Part shown: piece after piece, positions 1,613 to 63,449 of the stretch
How the letters are laid out: each line of letters begins with the position of its first letter
Numbering within the stretch: the stretch's first letter is position 1
Assembly (NCBI GenBank): GCA_947457935.1
Contig: CANGXP010000005.1
Coordinates: forward strand, 2,511 to 66,510
Direction of reading: 5' to 3'
Length of the DNA: 64,000 nucleotides
DNA from: Alphaproteobacteria bacterium
Lineage (GTDB): Bacteria > Pseudomonadota > Alphaproteobacteria > JAJTHO01 > CANGXP01
Notes under the pieces: generated by a model
Told to the model about the DNA's origin: nothing
Database searches by the model: none
Seen by the model: only the letters and a program-made list of their open reading frames with translations
Program-made: the position numbers and the translations under genes

Positions 1613-3418
1613 TCAAGCCGCCAACCCTTCCCCCCAGCCCCGTGTCTCCGCCGTGGGCAGCATCACATCCTCAATAAACACTTGCGGCGTGGGGGTTTTG
1701 CCCCATGTATCCAGTTTTAACGTGCCCGCAATATGCAACGGCTTACCTTGGTTGGAGAGCAACACCTGCCCGATATTCTGGTCAAGGGCACGGAATGCCA
1801 TCGCTTTCACGGTAAAAGCGCGGTCTTTATCTCCCAACACACACCGCACATGATTATCCCCCACAACGGCGGCTTGGCGAATAATCACCTCAGGCAACAA
1901 AAACCGTGGTTGCGGATTGCCCGCCCCAAACGGCGCGAGTTGCTCTAATTTTGTGATAAAGTCCGCTGTGATGCCCTTAATGTGCATTGTGCCATCTAAA
2001 TGCAACAGCGGCGTAATATTCTGTGCAGCAATAAGGCGTTGCACCTGTTCTTCTAAGTAGTCTGTGAAGACAGGCAGCATGCTTGCATGGATACTAAACC
2101 CCGCCGCCATTTCATGCCCACCACCAGCCAACAACATCTCTTGTTGCCGTGCGGCAATCACTAAATTGCCCAAATGCACGCCACTCACCGAACGACATGA
2201 TGCCTTACCAATCCCTTTTTCATCAAAGGCTATTACGCAGGTTGGCAGGTGATACCTTTCTTTAAGACGTCCCGCTACAATGCCAATCACCCCTGCGTGC
2301 CACCCCTGCCCTGACACAATCAACACACTTCTTTTACTCGCCGCGTCATTGGTAAGAGCCTCTGCCTGCACCAATGCTTCACTTAAAACAGTATATTCAA
2401 TGGCTTTTCGCTCTTTGTTAAACTCTTCTAACAGCGTTGCAATGTGCTGTGCTTCGGCAGGATTTTTCGTACTCAGCAATTTTGCGCCTAAATCCGATTG
2501 CCCCACACGCCCCCCTGCATTGATCCGTGGACCCAACACAAACCCTAAATGATACGCCGTCGGCACTTCCTTAACACCCGCCGTATCCATCAGCGTTTTC
2601 AGCCCCAAATTTTGCCGATTTGCCATCACTTTTAAGCCTTGCGCCACAAAAGCTCGATTCAGCGTGGTCAGACTCACCACGTCACACACGGTGCCTAGCG
2701 CCACAATATCGAGTAAATTAAGCAAGTTAGGCTTTTTTGTTTGTGTAAAAAACCCCCGCGCTTCCAAAATGGTGTTGGTCGCAATCAGCAACAAAAACAC
2801 CACGCCCACGGCCGCTAAGTGCTTATAATCACTGTCTTCATCAAACCGATTCGGGTTCACCACCGCCACCGCCGCTGGCATGGTTAACTCACTCGCATGG
2901 TGATCAATCACCAGCACTTCTAACCCACAGTTTTTGGCGGCCTCAAGGGGGGCAAATGCCGTGGTGCCACAATCAACGGTAATCACCAAGTCAACGCCTT
3001 CTGCCCGCAGCTTTTCTAGTGCAGGCGCATTAGGACCATACCCCTCTTTCATGCGGTCAGGCACATACAATTGAATGACTTGCCCTAACATCTGAAAGTA
3101 ATTTAATAGCAATGCAGAAGAAGTTGCGCCATCTACATCATAATCACCCCACACTGCCACCGATTGCTTGCTGATAATTGCTTCAGCTAATCTATTCGCT
3201 GCCGCTTGCATATCTTTGAGATGCAATGGATTTGGCAGCGCATCTTTGAGACGCGGCTCTAAAAACCCCTCCGCCTCTTCTAAGCCAATATTGCGCGCCG
3301 CGAGCAGCTGCCCCAAAACCACAGGCAGTTGAAATCGTTGACTCAACGCTAACGCAAGGCGTTCATCATGCGGTTTAAAGCGCCACGTTCTAGCAGAGGC
3401 TGAAAGCATTATAATCAT
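1613..3418 (-). CDS. recJ: Single-stranded-DNA-specific exonuclease RecJ
   Basis: 601-aa protein with DHH and DHHA1 family sequence features (VITVDCGTTA, DHH). The alternative start at 3409 (MLSAS...) is more likely. Either start lies inside element copy 2. Confidence 0.9.
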   Translation of the reverse strand: MIIMLSASARTWRFKPHDERLALALSQRFQLPVVLGQLLAARNIGLEEAEGFLEPRLKDALPNPLHLKDMQAAANRLAEAIISKQSVAVWGDYDVDGATSSALLLNYFQMLGQVIQLYVPDRMKEGYGPNAPALEKLRAEGVDLVITVDCGTTAFAPLEAAKNCGLEVLVIDHHASELTMPAAVAVVNPNRFDEDSDYKHLAAVGVVFLLLIATNTILEARGFFTQTKKPNLLNLLDIVALGTVCDVVSLTTLNRAFVAQGLKVMANRQNLGLKTLMDTAGVKEVPTAYHLGFVLGPRINAGGRVGQSDLGAKLLSTKNPAEAQHIATLLEEFNKERKAIEYTVLSEALVQAEALTNDAASKRSVLIVSGQGWHAGVIGIVAGRLKERYHLPTCVIAFDEKGIGKASCRSVSGVHLGNLVIAARQQEMLLAGGGHEMAAGFSIHASMLPVFTDYLEEQVQRLIAAQNITPLLHLDGTMHIKGITADFITKLEQLAPFGAGNPQPRFLLPEVIIRQAAVVGDNHVRCVLGDKDRAFTVKAMAFRALDQNIGQVLLSNQGKPLHIAGTLKLDTWGKTPTPQVFIEDVMLPTAETRGWGEGLAA

Positions 3419-3539
3419 TCCACTTTAAAATTACCCCTGCCTGCAAACTTCCTTTAGCGTCTCTTCTGTACGAATAGGTACATTTCGCGCCGCTGCAGTC
3501 GTTTTCGGCTATGGGTAATTTCAAATTGAAACGACTATA
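3410..3539 (-). mobile_element. Palindromic MITE-like element copy 2
   Basis: TA-TAATCATTCCACTTTAAAATTACCC ... GGGTAATTTCAAATTGAAACGACTA-TA. The core is reverse-complemented relative to copy 1. It overlaps the 5' end and start codon of recJ. Confidence 0.6.
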
Positions 3540-3702
3540 CGAGAGGCGGGAGAATAATGTTAAAATTACAAAACCCTTGTCTTTACTGTGCATATTGCGT
3601 ATGGAAACGCAACGTAAAAGGTAACGGAGCCTAGAGGATGGCACTTTTCTCTCGCCTCTCGCCTCCCGCCTTTTGCCTCCCGCCTCATTCAGGAATAAAG
3701 CC

Positions 3703-7203: not shown

Positions 7204-7887
7204 ATGAACGACATCCTCAAAGAAGCCCAATCAGACCTCACCCAAGAAAAACTGCGCGTTTTCTTCCAAAAACACACGGGCAAATTGGTAGGCGGTGTGG
7301 TGGTAGTATTGCTCTCAGCGGGGGCAGCAAGCTGGATGCACAGCGAAAAACAAGAAAAACTCGAAGCCCTCAATGTGCAATATCATGCCGCCGAAAAATT
7401 CATTGCGGAAAGCAGCCTTGCCGAAGCCAGCAACACGCTGGATGCACTGGCAGATCAAGAAGGAAAACACGGTTTTGGTACACTCGCTCGTTTCCGCAAG
7501 GCATCCTTATTGCTGATACAAAACAGAGAAGAAGAAGCGCAAAAAATTTACGCAAAACTCGCTAAAGACGGCAGCATTTCCCCTTCTTTACGCGAGTACG
7601 CGAGTATTTTATACGCCTACGGTGCGCTGAACACACAAACGGGCATTGATGCCGATACAACCAAACAACTCACAAAAATCATTGACGATAAAGGGGCGTG
7701 GAAATTTGCCGCGCGTGAGATTCTCGCGCTGCAAAGTCTGCAAGACCTGAAGAAAATCTCTAACCCTGATGAAAAGCGCGTTCAAGAAACTGCGGAGAAA
7801 TTCCAAAGTCTCACAGAAGAAGCCGAAATCCCCAGTGCAATGAAACAACGCGCCGAAGCCATCCTCACTGTGCTCCCCCAACTATAG
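7204..7887 (+). CDS. YfgM-like membrane-anchored TPR protein (UPF0070)
   Basis: N-terminal TM helix followed by an alpha-helical TPR-like body. Conserved position upstream of bamB. Its TAG stop lies inside the terminus of element copy 3. Confidence 0.6.
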   Translation: MNDILKEAQSDLTQEKLRVFFQKHTGKLVGGVVVVLLSAGAASWMHSEKQEKLEALNVQYHAAEKFIAESSLAEASNTLDALADQEGKHGFGTLARFRKASLLLIQNREEEAQKIYAKLAKDGSISPSLREYASILYAYGALNTQTGIDADTTKQLTKIIDDKGAWKFAAREILALQSLQDLKKISNPDEKRVQETAEKFQSLTEEAEIPSAMKQRAEAILTVLPQL

Positions 7888-8011
7888 TCATTCCACTTTA
7901 AAATTCCTCATGCCTGCAAACTTTCCTTAGCGTCCCTCATGTACAAAAGGTACACTTCGTGCCGCTGCGGTCGCTTTCGGCTACGGGGAATTTTAAATTG
8001 AAACGACTATA
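7883..8011 (-). mobile_element. Palindromic MITE-like element copy 3
   Basis: TA-TAGTCATTCCACTTTAAAATTCC ... GGAATTTTAAATTGAAACGACTA-TA with clean TA duplication. It fills the whole yfgM-bamB intergenic region. Confidence 0.65.
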
Positions 8012-8034
8012 CAACCAAAAAATAAGGGGCTTTT

Positions 8035-16124: not shown

Positions 16125-19100
16125 ATGACACAGCCCCTCTCGTTCCAAAACATCATTCTCACCCTCCAGAAATTCTGGGGAAACCAAGGCTGTGCCTTGC
16201 TTCAGCCATATGATGTGGAGATGGGCGCGGGCACCTTTCACCCCGCAACAACCCTAAGATCTTTGGGCGAACAGCCGTGGCGCGCTGCCTATCCCCAACC
16301 CTGCCGCCGCCCTACCGATGGCCGCTATGGCGAGAACCCTAACCGCCTTCAGCACTACTATCAGTTCCAAGTTATCATAAAACCCTCGCCTGCCAACATC
16401 CAAGAATTGTATCTAGAAAGCCTGAAAGCCTTAGGAATAGACATTTCTAAGCACGATATTCGGTTTGTGGAAGACGATTGGGAAAGTCCTACTTTGGGGG
16501 CAGCGGGTCTTGGTTGGGAGGTGTGGTGCGATGGCATGGAAGTCACGCAATTCACCTATTTCCAGCAGGTTGGCGGCTTTGATTGCGCGCCCGTTTCTGC
16601 CGAGATTACCTACGGATTAGAACGCCTTGCCATGTATATTCAAGGCGTGGAGAATGTGTATGATTTGATTTACGTTGAAGGGGATAGGCACGAGGCACGA
16701 GGCACGAGGGAAGAAATGATTTCCTCTTCTCGCGCCTCGTGCCTCGAGCCTCTTACCTATGGAAACGTCTTCCTCCGCAACGAACAAGAATTTTCCGCCT
16801 ATAATTTTGAGCACGCAACCACCGAAAAGTTATTCCAACACTTTGCTGATGCCGAGCTAGAATGCCAGCACTTGCTCGCACAAAACCTTGCCCTGCCTGC
16901 CTACGACCAGTGCATCAAAGCCAGTCATACCTTTAATTTGCTGGATGCACGGCGGGTGATTAGTGTTTCCGAACGCGCCAGCTACATCGGGCGGGTACGC
17001 GCTCTTGCCAAGGGATGTTGCGAGGCATGGCTTGCGAAAGCGGCAGCAAGCAACAATCTTCAAGGTGCAGCACAAGAAAAAACTTTCTCCAATCCCCAAA
17101 CTCCAAACCTGAAAACCGAAAACAGCTTTTTATTGGAACTCCTTACCGAAGAAATCCCCGCACGGATGCAGCAAGCGGCACGGGCAGATTTATTACGGCT
17201 ATTCACGCAAAAGCTGGAAAAGCGCGGTATTACAGGGTTTAACGCAACAAGTTGTGTCACGCCACGCCGCCTTGCGTTGTTGGTGGAGGGCTTACCTGCC
17301 GCACAACCCGCCACCACGGAGGAACGGAAGGGCCCCAAAGTGGGCGCACCACAACAGGCGTTGGATGGCTTCTTGCGGAGTGCGGGTATTGAGGCAAGTA
17401 CGCTAAAACCTGTTCACAATCTCGCTAGACTGCAAGCGAAAATTGATGTTCCCGAGAACCAGCGCGCAGTGTATCCTTCATACATGAGCACTGGAAGCGC
17501 AGAGAACATCAATTTGCAGCAAGGTATAGTAGAGAGTGGGGATAGGTTTTTAGAACAGCGTGATGACGGCAAAGGCAACCTCTATTATTACGCGACGTTA
17601 CGCACGCCAGAAACCCCGCTTTCTGGGGTTCTTCCCGTTGTTATCAGTGAAATTTTGCTAGAATTTGCATGGGCAAAATCCATGCGTTGGGGCAATGGCG
17701 CGTTCCGTTGGGTGCGTCCGTTGCAAAATATTTTGGCGGTGCTGAATGGCGTACCGCTCGCGGGCGGCTTTGACCTTGGCAATCATCTTGAGAACTACCC
17801 TGCTGGCTATGTGACCGAATGGCATAGCGGGCAAACTGTGTTGGTGTTTAATAACACAACGGTGGGGCATCGCGTTCATGCGCCTGAAGCATTGCAAATC
17901 AACACGCCGCAAGAATATTTGAGCGCACTGCGTAATGCCTCTGTTGAGCCATGCGTTGAGGCACGCAAAAAGAAAATTATTGAGCACGCAACATTGCTTG
18001 CACCCAAGGGTTTAACCATTGATTTTAATGAGAAATTATTGGAAGAAGTGGCGGGCTTAAATGAGCATCCCGTGCCGTTATTGGGGCAAATTGACGCGAA
18101 ATTTATGACCGTGCCGCCTGAAATTCTCACCACAAGCATGGCGAGTCACCAGCGGTATTTCGCGTGTTATGATGCCGCTGGCACACTCCAGCCCTATTTT
18201 ATCGCGGTTGCCAACCAAAACAGTGATGATGCGGGTCTCGCCATTATTCAAGGCAATGAAAAAGTGCTCCGCGCCCGCCTGTTTGACGCGGCGTTTTTCT
18301 GGGAAAACGATAAAAAGCAAGCTGTTGAACGGGGTATGGAGAGCTTCCTTGAGCCGCTGAAGAACGTGGTGTTTCATCAGGGTTTGGGGACGGTGTATGA
18401 CAAGGCGATGCGGATTGCTGCCCTTGCTATGTCCTTCGCTGACGTTGTAGGGGGCGATGCATCTCACATACACAAGGCAGCCCTCCTTGCCAAAGCAGAC
18501 CTTTCCAGCGGGGTTGTGGGGGAGTTCCCCGAATTACAGGGGATTATGGGGAGTTATCTAGCAACGGCAGCGGGGCTAGATAAAAATATCGCTCTTGCTA
18601 TTCGTAAGCATTATCAGCCGATTGGTGATAGCCCTGTGCCTGCCAACCCTGTGAGTGTGGCGATTGCCTTAGCCGATAAAATGGACACGCTGGTGGCGTT
18701 TTTTGCGATTGGCGAAAAGCCTACGGGTTCAAAAGACCCGTTCGCGTTGCGCCGTGCCGCGATTGGCATTATTCGGTTGATTGTGGAAAATAAACTTCCT
18801 TTAAGCATTAAAAATTTAGTTCTGTGGGGATGCATTGAGTTTCAGCATCAGCATATAAAACCAATAGATGGCAGCGTTGTAGACGATTTAACAAACTTCC
18901 TTAAAGATCGCTTCGTGGTCTACCTCCGCGATACCCACACTCTCCGCCCCGACATCATTCACGCTGTTTTGGCTGCACAACCACAGTTTGGTGACCTTGT
19001 TGCCCATAAACAGGCGATTGAGCAAACACAAGCGTTTCTTGCTTTGAACCCGAATGCGCCTGCCTTAGTGGCGGGGTATAAACGGGCGGTGAATATCCTA

Positions 19101-19406
19101 AACATTGAAGAGAAGAAAGATAAACGCCGCTATGACGGCATTGTTGACGCGGCATTGCTGCAAGACGCTGCGGAAAAGGCATTGGATGCAGCGTTAAACG
19201 CTGTGACCACAGCGCTTGCAACAACAGCGGACTACACCGCAATGCTGGAGCAACTCGCAACCCTGCGCCCCGCCATTGACGCGTTTTTCACCGAGGTGTT
19301 GGTGAATAGCGAGGATGTGAGCGTGCGGGAAAATCGCTTGTTTATGTTGCACTCGTTCCGCGCACTCGTGCAGCGCGTGGCGGATTTTGGCGGGGTGGAG
19401 GGGTAA
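16125..19406 (+). CDS. glyQS: Fused glycyl-tRNA synthetase alpha+beta subunits
   Basis: The N-terminal ~300 aa align to GlyQ ([36 protein letters not shown]). After a short linker the sequence continues as GlyS ([16 protein letters not shown] ... [16 protein letters not shown]). It is a single uninterrupted ORF. Confidence 0.9.
16688..16751. repeat. Imperfect ~64-bp palindrome embedded in-frame in the glyQ portion
   Basis: GGCACGAGGCACGAGGCACGAGGGAAGAAA-tgatttc-CTCTTCTCGCGCCTCGTGCCTCGAGCC. It encodes about 18 extra residues ([18 protein letters not shown]) relative to E. coli GlyQ between VYDL and YG(D/N)VF. Confidence 0.6.
17400..17550 (+). mobile_element. Decayed in-frame copy of the 129-bp palindromic element inside the glyS portion
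   Basis: CAGCGCGCAGTGTATCCTTCATACATGAGCA...AATTTGCAGCAAGGTATAGTAGAGAGTGGGGAT aligns to the element core (CAGCGGCGCGAAGTGTACCTCTTCGTACATGAGAGA...AGTTTGCAGGCATGGGTAATTTTAAAGTGGAATG). GlyS is about 43 aa longer than E. coli GlyS at exactly this position. Confidence 0.45.
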
Positions 19407-35315: not shown

Positions 35316-35586
35316 TATAGGTCTTTACCGATACAAAAAATGTAGCCACACCTGCCGTTGAGTGATTGATTCCACAGACCCTATATAATAGGTGGGTGCC
35401 AGATGATAAAAACCACGGTTCTTACCAGCGCCAGATCCCTGTGAAATCGTATGGACCGAGGAATGACAAAACCCTATCGCACAGGGCAGCTACATCAGAC
35501 ACTATACAACAAACCGCCGCCCAATACAACTTTGCATTAGGGCTGTTTTTCTGCTATGGTTAATGTTCACATTAGGGAGAAACGTC

Positions 35587-42327: not shown

Positions 42328-43773
42328 ATGATGCACTATACTTTACTATTGGGAAAAAACATTCAACCATGGCAGTGCCATACAGTTGCGCATGCACGCG
42401 ATATTTATAACAGCATTTATAACACCCCCACGCCAAACATTGCGCCCCCAAAATGGCAAGCGATGCTTGAGAATACTTTATTTAAATATCGTGCTCCACA
42501 CATTCCCTCTATTCCCCTTAAAAAGACAGCCATACCGCCGCAACAGAGCGGTGTTATTGATTTAACAGGCATCTCCACAACGTTACCGCACAAAAACACC
42601 CTGTTGAAGCCATTTTTTAATGGATCGTTTGATGCACAAGCGCTGCACACCAGCCTTGTGCAAGGCATAGCGCCCACTATTGGCTGGGCAATGCGTGATG
42701 CGACCGATAGCCCGTGGTATGTGCTTATTGAAGCGGACATTGCAGTAAGAGAACCCTTGGCATTGCAACCCGCACTCTCGCTCTGCGGGGAACGCTTGCA
42801 ACAGCTGTTCACACGCGGGATACAGAAGCTAAATACAGGCTATTTGCCCACCATCCCTTTCATACCGCAAGAACAGCCTCTATCTTTTTCCTACACAACG
42901 CTCGCGCTCAAACAGCTTAAACTCAAACTGCCGCATATCGTGCACAAACTTTTTTTGCGGAGAAACCATTGGGAAATGGCAATTGCGCGGCGCGATGCAA
43001 TCACGCCTGATGCATGGCAACGTCTGATTACTCCCCGTATGCACTTTGAAGCAGATCCGTTTTTGTGGGAAGAAAACGGCAAGACGTATCTTTTTTATGA
43101 ACAAGCGGTGTACCCATGCGGCAAAGGGCGCATCGCCTATCGTGTGGTTGCCGATGATGGCACGGCAAGCGAACCCGTGGTCGCCTTAGAACGCCCCTAT
43201 CACTTTTCTTATCCGCATTTATTTCGCTATAATGATACAACCCATATACTTCCTGAAAGCCGCGCTGGTAGACTAGAAATCTATAAAAGTGTTGTATTTC
43301 CTGATCATTGGGAATTAGCACACACCTTTTTTGAAGGCGTGAATGCGGCTGATTCTACCCTACATTACGATGGGCAACGCTGGTGGTTGTTTACCAACAT
43401 TGCGACAGGAGATGTCCCTAATTGGGACGAGCTGTTTTTATTTTATGCTGATAGCCCGTTTGGCGAGTGGACACCCCATCCGCAAAATCCCATCAAAGCC
43501 AGCGCAGCGGGGGCACGCATGGCGGGAAATTTGTTTAAGCAAAACGGCAACCTCATCCGCGTTGGACAAGATTGTCGTGGGGATTATGGTTTACAAGTGT
43601 TATTTTTTCGGGTGGATACCCTCACCCCTGAACAGTATGCAGAAACAGCTATCCCCTGCCCTATTACGCTGCCTAAAACGTACAAGATGGATGGCAAGAA
43701 GTTCCGCTGGCACAGCTATAGCCAATCGTCAAAATTTGTGGCAATTGATTATAATCGGGTGAAAAGGCGGTGA
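42328..43773 (+). CDS. hypothetical protein with C-terminal five-bladed beta-propeller glycoside-hydrolase-like domain
   Basis: The C-terminal ~250 aa (FEADPFLWEENGKTYLFYEQ ... RWWLFTNIATG ... NLIRVGQDCRGDYG) resemble GH43/GH130-type propellers. The N-terminal ~230 aa have no recognisable family. Confidence 0.4.
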   Translation: MMHYTLLLGKNIQPWQCHTVAHARDIYNSIYNTPTPNIAPPKWQAMLENTLFKYRAPHIPSIPLKKTAIPPQQSGVIDLTGISTTLPHKNTLLKPFFNGSFDAQALHTSLVQGIAPTIGWAMRDATDSPWYVLIEADIAVREPLALQPALSLCGERLQQLFTRGIQKLNTGYLPTIPFIPQEQPLSFSYTTLALKQLKLKLPHIVHKLFLRRNHWEMAIARRDAITPDAWQRLITPRMHFEADPFLWEENGKTYLFYEQAVYPCGKGRIAYRVVADDGTASEPVVALERPYHFSYPHLFRYNDTTHILPESRAGRLEIYKSVVFPDHWELAHTFFEGVNAADSTLHYDGQRWWLFTNIATGDVPNWDELFLFYADSPFGEWTPHPQNPIKASAAGARMAGNLFKQNGNLIRVGQDCRGDYGLQVLFFRVDTLTPEQYAETAIPCPITLPKTYKMDGKKFRWHSYSQSSKFVAIDYNRVKRR

Positions 43774-45836: not shown

Positions 45837-46370
45837 CTACAACCCCAACAATTTCTTCCGTAACTTCGGCTCAGACGTTTTTTCGCCTAACCAAATATCG
45901 AAAAATCGTTGCGAAAGAGTTTTATCGGTAATGGCGCCCGTTTCCTCGCCATTGTGATAGAACGTTGTCACGCCACTCGGTTGATAAACAGCGGTGATCG
46001 TATCGTTTTCTGCCACATCAGGGAAACTTGCCTCTAGGGCAATGGTAAGATTTTTGCGCTCATCGGCGGTCAATTTTTGCTGACCATCCATTTCTTTCAA
46101 AGTACGTTCAATCAAATCTGTTTTCGAAAAATCCATTTCGTATTTGATGCGCAACGCAAACGGCACATCGTAAGACCATGCACCTGCATCACACCATAAC
46201 TCAGCCGTATAAGCATCAAACATCAACCATGAGAGCTGTCCTGTTCCTAGAGGCTTTTCGCTGGTGAATTGGTCGTCAATTTCTGCTGGCGGACTTGCGA
46301 TAGCAGACACAGATGTGAGCAAAGCAACACCCAATGCCACCACAAAACTCTTCGCGCCTCTCGCCTTCAT
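45837..46370 (-). CDS. Chalcone-isomerase-like secreted protein
   Basis: Signal peptide. Family co-occurring in the conserved lipid cluster. Confidence 0.5.
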   Translation of the reverse strand: MKARGAKSFVVALGVALLTSVSAIASPPAEIDDQFTSEKPLGTGQLSWLMFDAYTAELWCDAGAWSYDVPFALRIKYEMDFSKTDLIERTLKEMDGQQKLTADERKNLTIALEASFPDVAENDTITAVYQPSGVTTFYHNGEETGAITDKTLSQRFFDIWLGEKTSEPKLRKKLLGL

Positions 46371-46383
46371 ACTCTCGCCTCTC

Positions 46384-56612: not shown

Positions 56613-56676
56613 GATTAATATTTTTCCGTTGCTTACATCAAAAATATTTCAGACTGCTAAAAATTCTTTATTGAGT

Positions 56677-56758
56677 CTGGATACCAGCTTTCGCTGGTAA
56701 TTCGCCACTCTCGCAAGGATTATCTGCGGTGCGCTTACCAGCGAAAGCTGGTATCCAG
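56677..56758. repeat. Perfect 24-bp inverted repeat with 34-bp spacer
   Basis: CTGGATACCAGCTTTCGCTGGTAA ... TTACCAGCGAAAGCTGGTATCCAG. Each arm also contains its own CCAGC-tttc-GCTGG hairpin. It lies between pntB and the amidotransferase gene. Confidence 0.7.
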
Positions 56759-56789
56759 AAATTAAACAGTGATTAATTGTTTTTGCCTC

Positions 56790-63318: not shown

Positions 63319-63449
63319 TATAGTTATTCCAAAACAAAATTACCCGCTGGCGAAAACAACCGCAACCGAGCGAAAGTGTACATCTTAGTACATGAGCGAG
63401 GTTAAGGGAAGTTTGCAGTCGTGGGTAACTTTGTTTTGGAGTGACTATC
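63319..63449 (+). mobile_element. Palindromic MITE-like element copy 5 (divergent)
   Basis: TA-TAGTTATTCCAAAACAAAATTACCC ... GGGTAACTTTGTTTTGGAGTGACTA-TC. Core homologous to copy 1. It ends one base before the recA stop codon. Confidence 0.55.

Follow-up and report, generated by a model that had tools for sequence, protein, structure and literature searches.

A heptamer-armed hairpin in the glyQ region of an alphaproteobacterial glyQ-glyS gene and its resemblance to intervening-sequence elements

Introduction

How does a palindrome come to reside in the reading frame of an essential enzyme, and to what kind of element does it belong? These questions are raised by a 64,000-nucleotide stretch of alphaproteobacterial DNA (contig CANGXP010000005.1, positions 2,511 to 66,510 of the forward strand; hereafter the window), in which a fused gene for the GlyQ and GlyS parts of glycyl-tRNA synthetase (GlyRS) carries an imperfect palindrome whose arms are built from tandem heptamers. 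A first-pass annotation, prepared from the sequence alone, regarded the palindrome as the footprint of a small insertion. Our comparisons with GlyQ homologues and with known classes of repetitive DNA lead us to propose that it is probably a 'miniature' heptamer-stem element that lacks an open reading frame (ORF), resembles the intervening sequences (IVSs) of 23S rRNA, and entered glyQ independently in the lineage of the window.

Results and Discussion

The hairpin and its host gene

The host gene is a single ORF of 1093 amino acids on the forward strand (ATG at 16125, stop at 19406), and its product includes PF02091 (residues 7-305), PF02092 (residues 477-950) and a DALR domain. The palindrome lies in frame within the GlyQ part, at 16686-16751 on the same strand. 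It is composed of a left arm (16686-16716), an apical loop (16717-16719) and a right arm (16720-16751), and is translated as 22 residues. Its inverted arms are 26-30 nucleotides long with 83-88% complementarity. The predicted RNA fold of 16680-16760 reaches -49.2 kcal/mol with about 31 pairs, compared to a mean of -24.2 kcal/mol for shuffled sequences (z = -7.43; none of 200 shuffles equaled it), and the antisense strand reaches -54.1 kcal/mol (z = -8.9). These values bear out the 64-base-pair imperfect palindrome of the first-pass annotation, and they describe a long, stable stem-loop formed from complementary termini, as is characteristic of IVSs.

Both arms are repetitive. The left arm consists of (AGGCACG)x3.4 at 16686-16709 on the forward strand (Tandem Repeats Finder (TRF) period 7, 100% matches), and the three tandem CACGAGG units reported earlier are found at 16689-16709. 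The right arm carries CTCGCGC, CTCGTGC and CTCGAGC, which are GCCTCNN units forming an imperfect inverse of the left arm, at 16729-16752 on the same strand (TRF period 7, 3.4 copies, 88% matches). With 3.4 copies per arm, the palindrome has the three or more tandem 7-nucleotide units that define a heptamer array, and the convergent inverted pair can form a stem-loop.

The 16-mer GGCACGAGGCACGAGG, searched for in the 64-kb window with up to three mismatches, is found only at the palindrome (five overlapping matches, 0.34 expected). A blastn search of plasmids with the palindrome gave only chance matches of 19-32 nucleotides. Rfam returned only miRNA hairpin models at no more than 31 bits, below gathering scores of at least 47, which are generic hairpin matches. 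An intrinsic terminator was considered and rejected, as the hairpin is not terminator-like, and no nearby promoter scored above chance.

The site in the protein appears to be permissive. When aligned to E. coli GlyQ (PDB 7EIV), query residues 6-187 correspond to chain residues 8-189 and query residues 210-306 to chain residues 193-291, and 22 query residues stand in place of three (E. coli GlyQ 190-192) after 'VWSDGP'. This is the segment to which the palindrome had originally been assigned. An AlphaFold2 model places a short helix in the insert and has predicted local distance difference test (pLDDT) values of 63-68 at residues 191-210 versus about 90 on both sides. The model fits an insert that forms a low-confidence excursion between the GlyQ catalytic core and the helical domain. 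The replacement of a three-residue loop, in frame and at low pLDDT, agrees with the earlier view that the palindrome is tolerated inside an essential enzyme, and it is the type of structurally permissive site in a coding gene that is occupied by Rickettsia palindromic elements (RPEs).

Filled and empty sites

The GlyQ homologues examined were the best 120, with 69-82% identity, and among these the proteins nearest to the window GlyQ have no insert. The closest relative whose DNA was read (L175, protein P0004) has 70% nucleotide identity and aligns through the site with a single 60-nucleotide gap. This locus reads GGTGA|AGTGCCTGTCACC and the window reads GGGGA-[60 nt]-AGCCTCTTACC, which places the extra DNA approximately at 16685-16745 of the forward strand, with boundaries that are ambiguous by a few nucleotides. 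No target-site duplication is visible when the filled window site is compared with the empty L175 site. The alignment corresponds to 20 codons, not the approximately 18 extra residues first estimated. In neighbor-joining (NJ) trees, the window GlyQ falls in a small split with the insert-less proteins P0002-6 and P0016, and with no other insert-bearer, in 25 of 30 bootstrap replicates. Judged by these alignments, the palindrome is an insertion in the lineage of the window. An identical insert conserved across related genera, which had been named as the sign of an ancestral loop, was not observed.

Other hairpins at the same GlyQ loop

The same loop is enlarged in other alphaproteobacterial lineages, which are uncultured. 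The loop segment has 26-35 residues in 17 of the 119 other homologues and 6-13 residues in the rest, and the insert peptides of different lineages are unrelated to each other. Thus, the first-pass reading of the palindrome as an insertion footprint stands, given the empty site in L175, but the implication of a one-off event does not, given analogous hairpins in the same loop of about 17 of these proteins. Insert-bearers belong mostly to one NJ clade, yet they are interleaved with insert-less proteins, as illustrated by the pairs P0022/P0116 and P0007/P0104. Fitch parsimony gives eight changes on the NJ tree and 6-11 over 60 bootstrap trees (median 8), although trees from a 280-column protein alignment are weak evidence on the number of gains. 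The window insert was present in none of at least 160 GlyQ loci among the matches listed (GTDB genomes and JGI metagenomes), which says little about its frequency.

The DNA of five other inserts (L082, L083, L084, L165 and L166) was read, and all five form hairpins. The arms are tandem heptamers in L082, L083 and L165 and octamers in L084, and the arm units differ by lineage: AGGCTCN/CGAAGCC in L082, GAATTCA/CGAATCC in L083 and CGTGNNN/ACGCACC-type in L165. Inserts of about 63 nucleotides are found in L082, L083, L084 and L165. The apical region is A-rich (GAAAAAAAA) in L082, L083 and L165, and the L084 loop is not. The hairpin of L166 (2694-2790; protein P0022) is different. It is 87 nucleotides long, non-repetitive, folds to -53 kcal/mol and is set three codons further upstream within this loop. 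At the protein level, the motif '..SCG...SQDL' is common to the L166 insert, P0061 and P0106. The occurrence of this hairpin beside the heptamer type indicates that the loop has accepted two or more kinds of palindrome. L167 and L168, where the site is empty, read ...GAT TTC AAC GGC NNN GGC GTN NNN TAY GG.

The top GlyQ match (P0001) was left out. It has 418 amino acids on a 1.9-kb contig, and about 110 residues of its catalytic core are duplicated internally, probably through misassembly. The duplication starts near the insert-bearing loop.

PF05635 genes between inverted heptamer arrays

In L082, L083 and L084, glyQ is followed directly by a gene for a protein of 124-144 amino acids. This protein matches the families of the Avd-like '23S rRNA intervening sequence protein' (S23p or IVP, also annotated as 'S23 ribosomal protein'): PF05635 at 127 bits (L082) and TIGR02436, 'four helix bundle protein', at 120-133 bits. 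These genes are located at L082:2600-3060, L083:1196-1670 and L084:1130-1575. In all three loci the IVP gene is enclosed by inverted heptamer arrays similar to the glyQ-internal hairpin of its own genome. The right arm of the in-gene hairpin equals the right arm of the IVP element at 25 of 25 nucleotides in L082. In L083 the match is 34 of 37 nucleotides and reaches into the hairpin loop (AACCACTGA...), which corresponds to the 3' end of the IVP ORF. Only a weak match links the two right arms in L084. For L082 and L083, arm similarity is greater within a genome than between genomes, and the IVP-element arm lies about 300-700 base pairs from the in-gene arm. The simplest reading of these matches is that the in-gene hairpin would derive, by an internal deletion that removed the ORF, from an element with an IVP gene, or that sequence passes between the two.

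Two further observations concern these arrays. From them, both GlyQ (NGLQASGSGLQG in L082) and the IVP protein also gain a C-terminal tail. In addition, the top of the window hairpin (16705-16718) carries GAGG, 7 nucleotides and an ATG in frame with glyQ (the Met in REEMISS), an arrangement that resembles the Shine-Dalgarno sequence and start codon found after the left arm in IVP-bearing elements. It is not common to the other in-gene hairpins. It may be what is left of a lost IVP start, or it could permit internal initiation.

A tblastn search of plasmids with the L083 IVP protein gave 44 records, mostly from Nostocales, and 12 genes from Cyanobacteriota, Azospirillum and Riemerella were inspected (L169-L174 and L178-L183). 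Inverted period-7 or period-8 arrays lie on both sides of at least nine of these 12 genes. When all PF05635 genes inspected are considered (Alphaproteobacteria, Cyanobacteriota and Bacteroidota), about 11 of 15 lie between inverted tandem heptamer arrays, and the unit is genome-specific. The arms are (GGGAGTA)n...(CCCTACT)n in Nostoc, (GGGTGTA)n...(TACACCC)n in Calothrix, (AGGGAAC)n...(CTGTTCC)n in Nostoc sp. C052, GGACAGA/GGACGGA...TCCGTCC in Azospirillum and GGTTTAA...TTGAACC in Riemerella. With incomplete coverage of the literature, we found no paper on a general link between heptamer arrays and PF05635, or on in-frame arrays in essential genes; the heptamers of the Coxiella IVS alone are described.

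The arrays flanking the cyanobacterial PF05635 genes look like short tandemly repeated repetitive (STRR)-type repeats. Several cyanobacterial PF05635 genes (plasmid loci L174, L181 and L182) are located in CRISPR-Cas operons, where they lie between cas10/cmr2 and cmr3, between cas6 and cas4, or beside cas4. A link to diversity-generating retroelements through Avd was considered. PF05635 proteins match Avd at 35-45 bits, where the cut-off is 80, and the link is not supported because no reverse transcriptase is nearby.

Heptamer arrays at other loci

The unit of the right arm is not confined to glyQ. GCCTCNN arrays are present at three window loci, and GCCTCNNGCCTC (up to one mismatch) has 12 matches versus 2.4 expected. 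The second locus is intergenic (3540-3693, forward strand) and includes an array, (CTCTCGC)x5.4 at 3649-3686, with an inverted partner, CGAGAGGCGGGAG, at 3540-3552. It adjoins a copy of the 129-bp palindromic element described below and has a fold z of -3.5. The third array (46352-46381, forward strand) is degenerate, has no inverted partner and lies at the 5' end of an ORF on the minus strand.

A peptide search with the palindrome translated in six frames located hairpins with its unit (TCGTGCC/GGCACGA, or TCGTGCC/GRAGCAC) in two coding genes of other organisms, which have 61-62% GC. An rsmD-like gene (L176, 1810-1905) and tsaE (L177, 1032-1124) each carry one in frame. A third match is at the C-terminus of a P-type ATPase fragment. 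Most matches were to low-complexity hypothetical ORFs, and the informative ones were P0126, P0138 and P0139 only.

A possible relic of another array is located between the GlyQ and GlyS parts of the fused gene. In L175, the two genes share an overlap of 8 nucleotides (ATGCCTGA), and compared to this relative the window has about 65 extra nucleotides at 17058-17122 of the forward strand. This linker comprises an A-rich stretch followed by the heptamer-periodic units CTCCAAT, CCCCAAA, CTCCAAA, CCTGAAA and ACCGAAA (TRF period 7 at 17087-17123). It no longer folds (z of about 0), and it is located where relatives carry the arms of IVP elements. The linker may be a decayed heptamer element, and this element may have created the gene fusion.

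Strand asymmetry of in-frame hairpins

Eight in-frame hairpins were folded on both strands, including those of L082, L083, L084, L165, L176 and L177 and window positions 16680-16760. The antisense strand folds much better than the sense strand in seven of the eight, although the cases do not count as independent events: a single change is multiplied by the repeats, and L082-84 share a relationship. For example, sense and antisense folds are -29.6 and -54.3 kcal/mol in L082, -14.4 and -35.2 kcal/mol in L083, -32.1 and -53.7 kcal/mol in L084, and -57.9 and -70.5 kcal/mol in L176. Five of the eight hairpins have zero G.U pairs in their sense folds and 4-9 in their antisense folds, and thus their imperfections are almost all A.C on the mRNA strand. 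The window hairpin is nearly symmetric (-49 versus -54 kcal/mol, with two G.U pairs each way), which fits a recent gain whose hairpin is not yet attenuated. Selection against a stable mRNA hairpin, selection for A-rich hydrophilic codons, or a constraint on antisense RNA or DNA might each cause the asymmetry. A fixed 'functional strand' for the ORF-bearing elements was also sought, and none is apparent, as the IVP-flanking arms do not all favor the same strand with respect to the IVP ORF.

Comparison with known elements

Small palindromic repeats in frame within coding genes, some of them essential, are reportedly carried by Rickettsia. RPEs measure 100-150 base pairs, have family consensus sequences and lack tandem heptamers. 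The glyQ hairpin is similar in being a palindromic in-frame passenger at a fold-compatible position of an essential gene. However, it differs in its length of 60-64 base pairs and in its heptamer-array arms, and there is no second copy of the same sequence in the window. Thus, the multi-copy family with a consensus of about 100-150 base pairs that typifies RPEs is not observed for this hairpin.

The IVS of Coxiella burnetii encodes S23p and has a 5' stem with (GACAGAT)3, whose copy number is strain-variable and whose first repeat is cut by RNase III (PMC4990558). IVSs of Coxiella and Leptospira share with the glyQ hairpin an extended stem of complementary termini with tandem heptamers. They exist in ORF-bearing and ORF-less forms, and relatives of the window likewise have a PF05635 gene between the same kind of arms beside glyQ. 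Both types of element are regarded as selfish and of obscure origin (PMC4990558). However, IVSs are located in helix 25 or 45 of 23S rRNA and are cut out by RNase III, whereas the glyQ hairpin is located in a coding region, is kept in the mRNA and is translated; no rRNA is present in the window. Cleavage by RNase III at the glyQ hairpin would be expected to destroy the message.

Heptamer repeats have been called hardly studied (PMC4692102). About 186 GGGAATC arrays are described for Xanthomonas campestris, with 70 cases of convergent pairs among them, and Nostoc has GGGGA(C/T)T arrays (Rehm et al., PMC4692102). Arrays of the STRR and GGGAATC types resemble the glyQ hairpin in being genome-specific tandem heptamers that are scattered and often arranged as convergent stem-loop pairs, but they are described mainly from intergenic DNA, and within ORFs the coding strand has fewer of them than expected. 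TAACTGA heptamer repeats are said to occur in Beggiatoaceae.

MITEs (miniature inverted-repeat transposable elements), repetitive extragenic palindromic (REP) sequences and bacterial interspersed mosaic elements (BIMEs) are, like the glyQ hairpin, short DNA palindromes that are non-autonomous. In L083, the in-gene hairpin is MITE-like in that it looks like an internal-deletion derivative of a larger ORF-bearing element. For the glyQ hairpin, we found neither a related transposon with matching terminal inverted repeats nor a target-site duplication, and no transposase gene, REP-associated tyrosine transposase (RAYT) gene or GTAG-type REP motif was seen with it. Overall, the glyQ element behaves like an RPE and resembles an IVS stem, and it is a formal member of neither class.

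Origin of the glyQ hairpin

We consider it probable that one copy of an ORF-less, IVS-like heptamer-stem element entered the loop between the catalytic core of GlyQ and its helical domain. Such a copy would have survived because it is 60 nucleotides long, is free of stops in the frame used, and falls in a loop where extra residues do no harm. Since only in-frame, stop-free copies in a permissive loop survive, target specificity is not needed to explain repeated occupation of the same loop. Transcription and translation would run through the copy and add 20 hydrophilic residues to the protein, and the copy would be tolerated as selfish or neutral DNA with no apparent function of its own. It would have spread as an element rather than originated in place, and would be derived from an IVP-bearing parent by internal deletion. 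Its mRNA hairpin would be selected against with time.

Several points weigh against this proposal. Neither a transposase nor a target-site duplication nor a conserved terminal motif was found. The window lacks a PF05635 gene, its hairpin has no ORF, and no second copy of the same sequence is present, so membership is argued from the architecture and from three loci that have only GCCTCNN in common. In rsmD and tsaE, it is the C-rich arm of the hairpin that lies at the 5' end, opposite to the glyQ hairpin. A palindrome is the same on both strands, and thus the opposite arm order represents a different arrangement rather than a flipped element or a simple copy. The number of gains is also poorly fixed by the trees, as noted above. 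Finally, the outermost right-arm GAGCCT aligns with a native AGTGCCT in L175, and slippage could therefore have seeded the array. A target of the IS200/IS605-like TTAC type, suggested by 'CCTCTTAC', which marks the right end of the hairpin both in the window and in L083, was dropped because L082, L084 and L165 lack the motif.

A wider proposal is possible but doubtful: heptamer-stem hairpins, with or without an S23p/IVP gene, might constitute one widespread mobile family in coding genes, 23S rRNA and intergenic DNA. Its members would be structure-constrained on one strand, which is antisense to the host gene in seven of eight in-frame cases. In an uncultured group of alphaproteobacteria they would have remodeled glyQ-glyS repeatedly, through loop insertions, C-terminal tails and possibly the fusion linker.

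Among the alternatives to an inserted IVS-like element, origin in place survives best, although we consider it unlikely. A native heptamer would have been expanded by replication slippage and the inverted arm made by fold-back template switching, and nothing would have moved. The three left-arm units are perfect tandem copies, and the last right-arm unit overlaps the homologue of L175 AGTGCCT/GTCACCT, which is itself 7-nucleotide periodic. The lack of an identical copy elsewhere in the 64-kb window is also expected under slippage, and the strain-variable heptamer copy number of the Coxiella IVS indicates that slippage acts on such arrays (PMC4990558). However, slippage does not readily explain why independent lineages have one design (about 63 nucleotides, an A-rich loop except in L084, and a G-rich 5' arm) despite differing native flanks. 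Moreover, the identities to the IVP arm in L082 (25/25) and L083 (34/37, including the non-repeat loop) are better explained by copying.

We rank next, and give a low probability to, selection for an RNA or single-stranded DNA structure, such as an RNase III site that tunes glyQS or a structure of the antisense strand. Hairpins persist while their sequences turn over, the antisense strand folds far better in seven of eight cases with imperfections mostly A.C on the mRNA strand, and stems of 25-30 base pairs are the type of RNase III substrate present in 23S rRNA IVSs. However, the insert is missing from the nearest relatives and from most GlyQs, and therefore it is not needed for GlyRS expression. 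The asymmetry is also explained by selection against stable mRNA structure or for hydrophilic A-rich codons. The two strands of the window copy fold almost equally well, no Rfam family matches it above threshold, and it is not terminator-like.

An ancestral, lineage-specific GlyQ loop, kept for a role of the protein and palindromic in its DNA only incidentally, is highly improbable. It would account for the use of one loop in many GlyQs, mostly of one NJ clade, and for the short helix in the AlphaFold2 model. However, the peptide is not conserved between lineages, the close pairs P0022/P0116 and P0007/P0104 differ in its presence, and the nearest relatives of the window are insert-less. Extreme palindromy with 7-nucleotide periodicity is also not expected from selection on protein. 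An artefact of assembly or sequencing, such as a chimeric or fold-back read from what is a metagenome assembly, can be practically dismissed, because the identical 1093-amino-acid protein is on record from four contigs, the frame is kept, and analogous inserts occur in independent JGI, NCBI and ENA assemblies.

Other repeats and RNAs in the window

The first-pass annotation saw no similarity between the palindrome and a 129-bp palindromic element of the same DNA, and our repeat searches of the window are consistent with this. Copies of the 129-bp family are located at 660-787, 3410-3540, 7883-8012 and 63320-63448, and part of another is found near 43765. The glyS part of the fused gene (17405-17550) carries a diverged in-frame copy that has the family blocks AGTGTAYC..TTCRTACATGAG and TTTGCAG, an RPE-like situation in the same gene. 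An intergenic region at 56676-56759 has a perfect 25-nucleotide inverted repeat (TCTGGATACCAGCTTTCGCTGGTAA and its complement) with a 34-nucleotide spacer, which is related neither to the heptamer hairpins nor to the 129-bp family. The sole Rfam match above gathering score in the window is the 6S RNA (SsrS) gene at 35339-35495 on the reverse strand (60.9 bits).

Conclusions

RPEs are the best-known case of selfish palindromic DNA carried in frame by essential genes, and the hairpins with heptamer arms described here appear to represent another class, for which one GlyQ loop is a recurrent landing site across lineages. The IVSs of 23S rRNA, the S23p/IVP (Avd-like) genes and the dispersed heptamers of bacteria share one architecture. 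This common architecture makes the movement of the elements and the role of S23p testable by comparative genomics and simple biochemistry. If the wider proposal is true, one mobile family would give IVS/S23p elements and cyanobacterial STRR-type heptamers a common identity. Inserts of this kind can also mislead gene annotation and phylogenies based on alignments of aminoacyl-tRNA synthetases.

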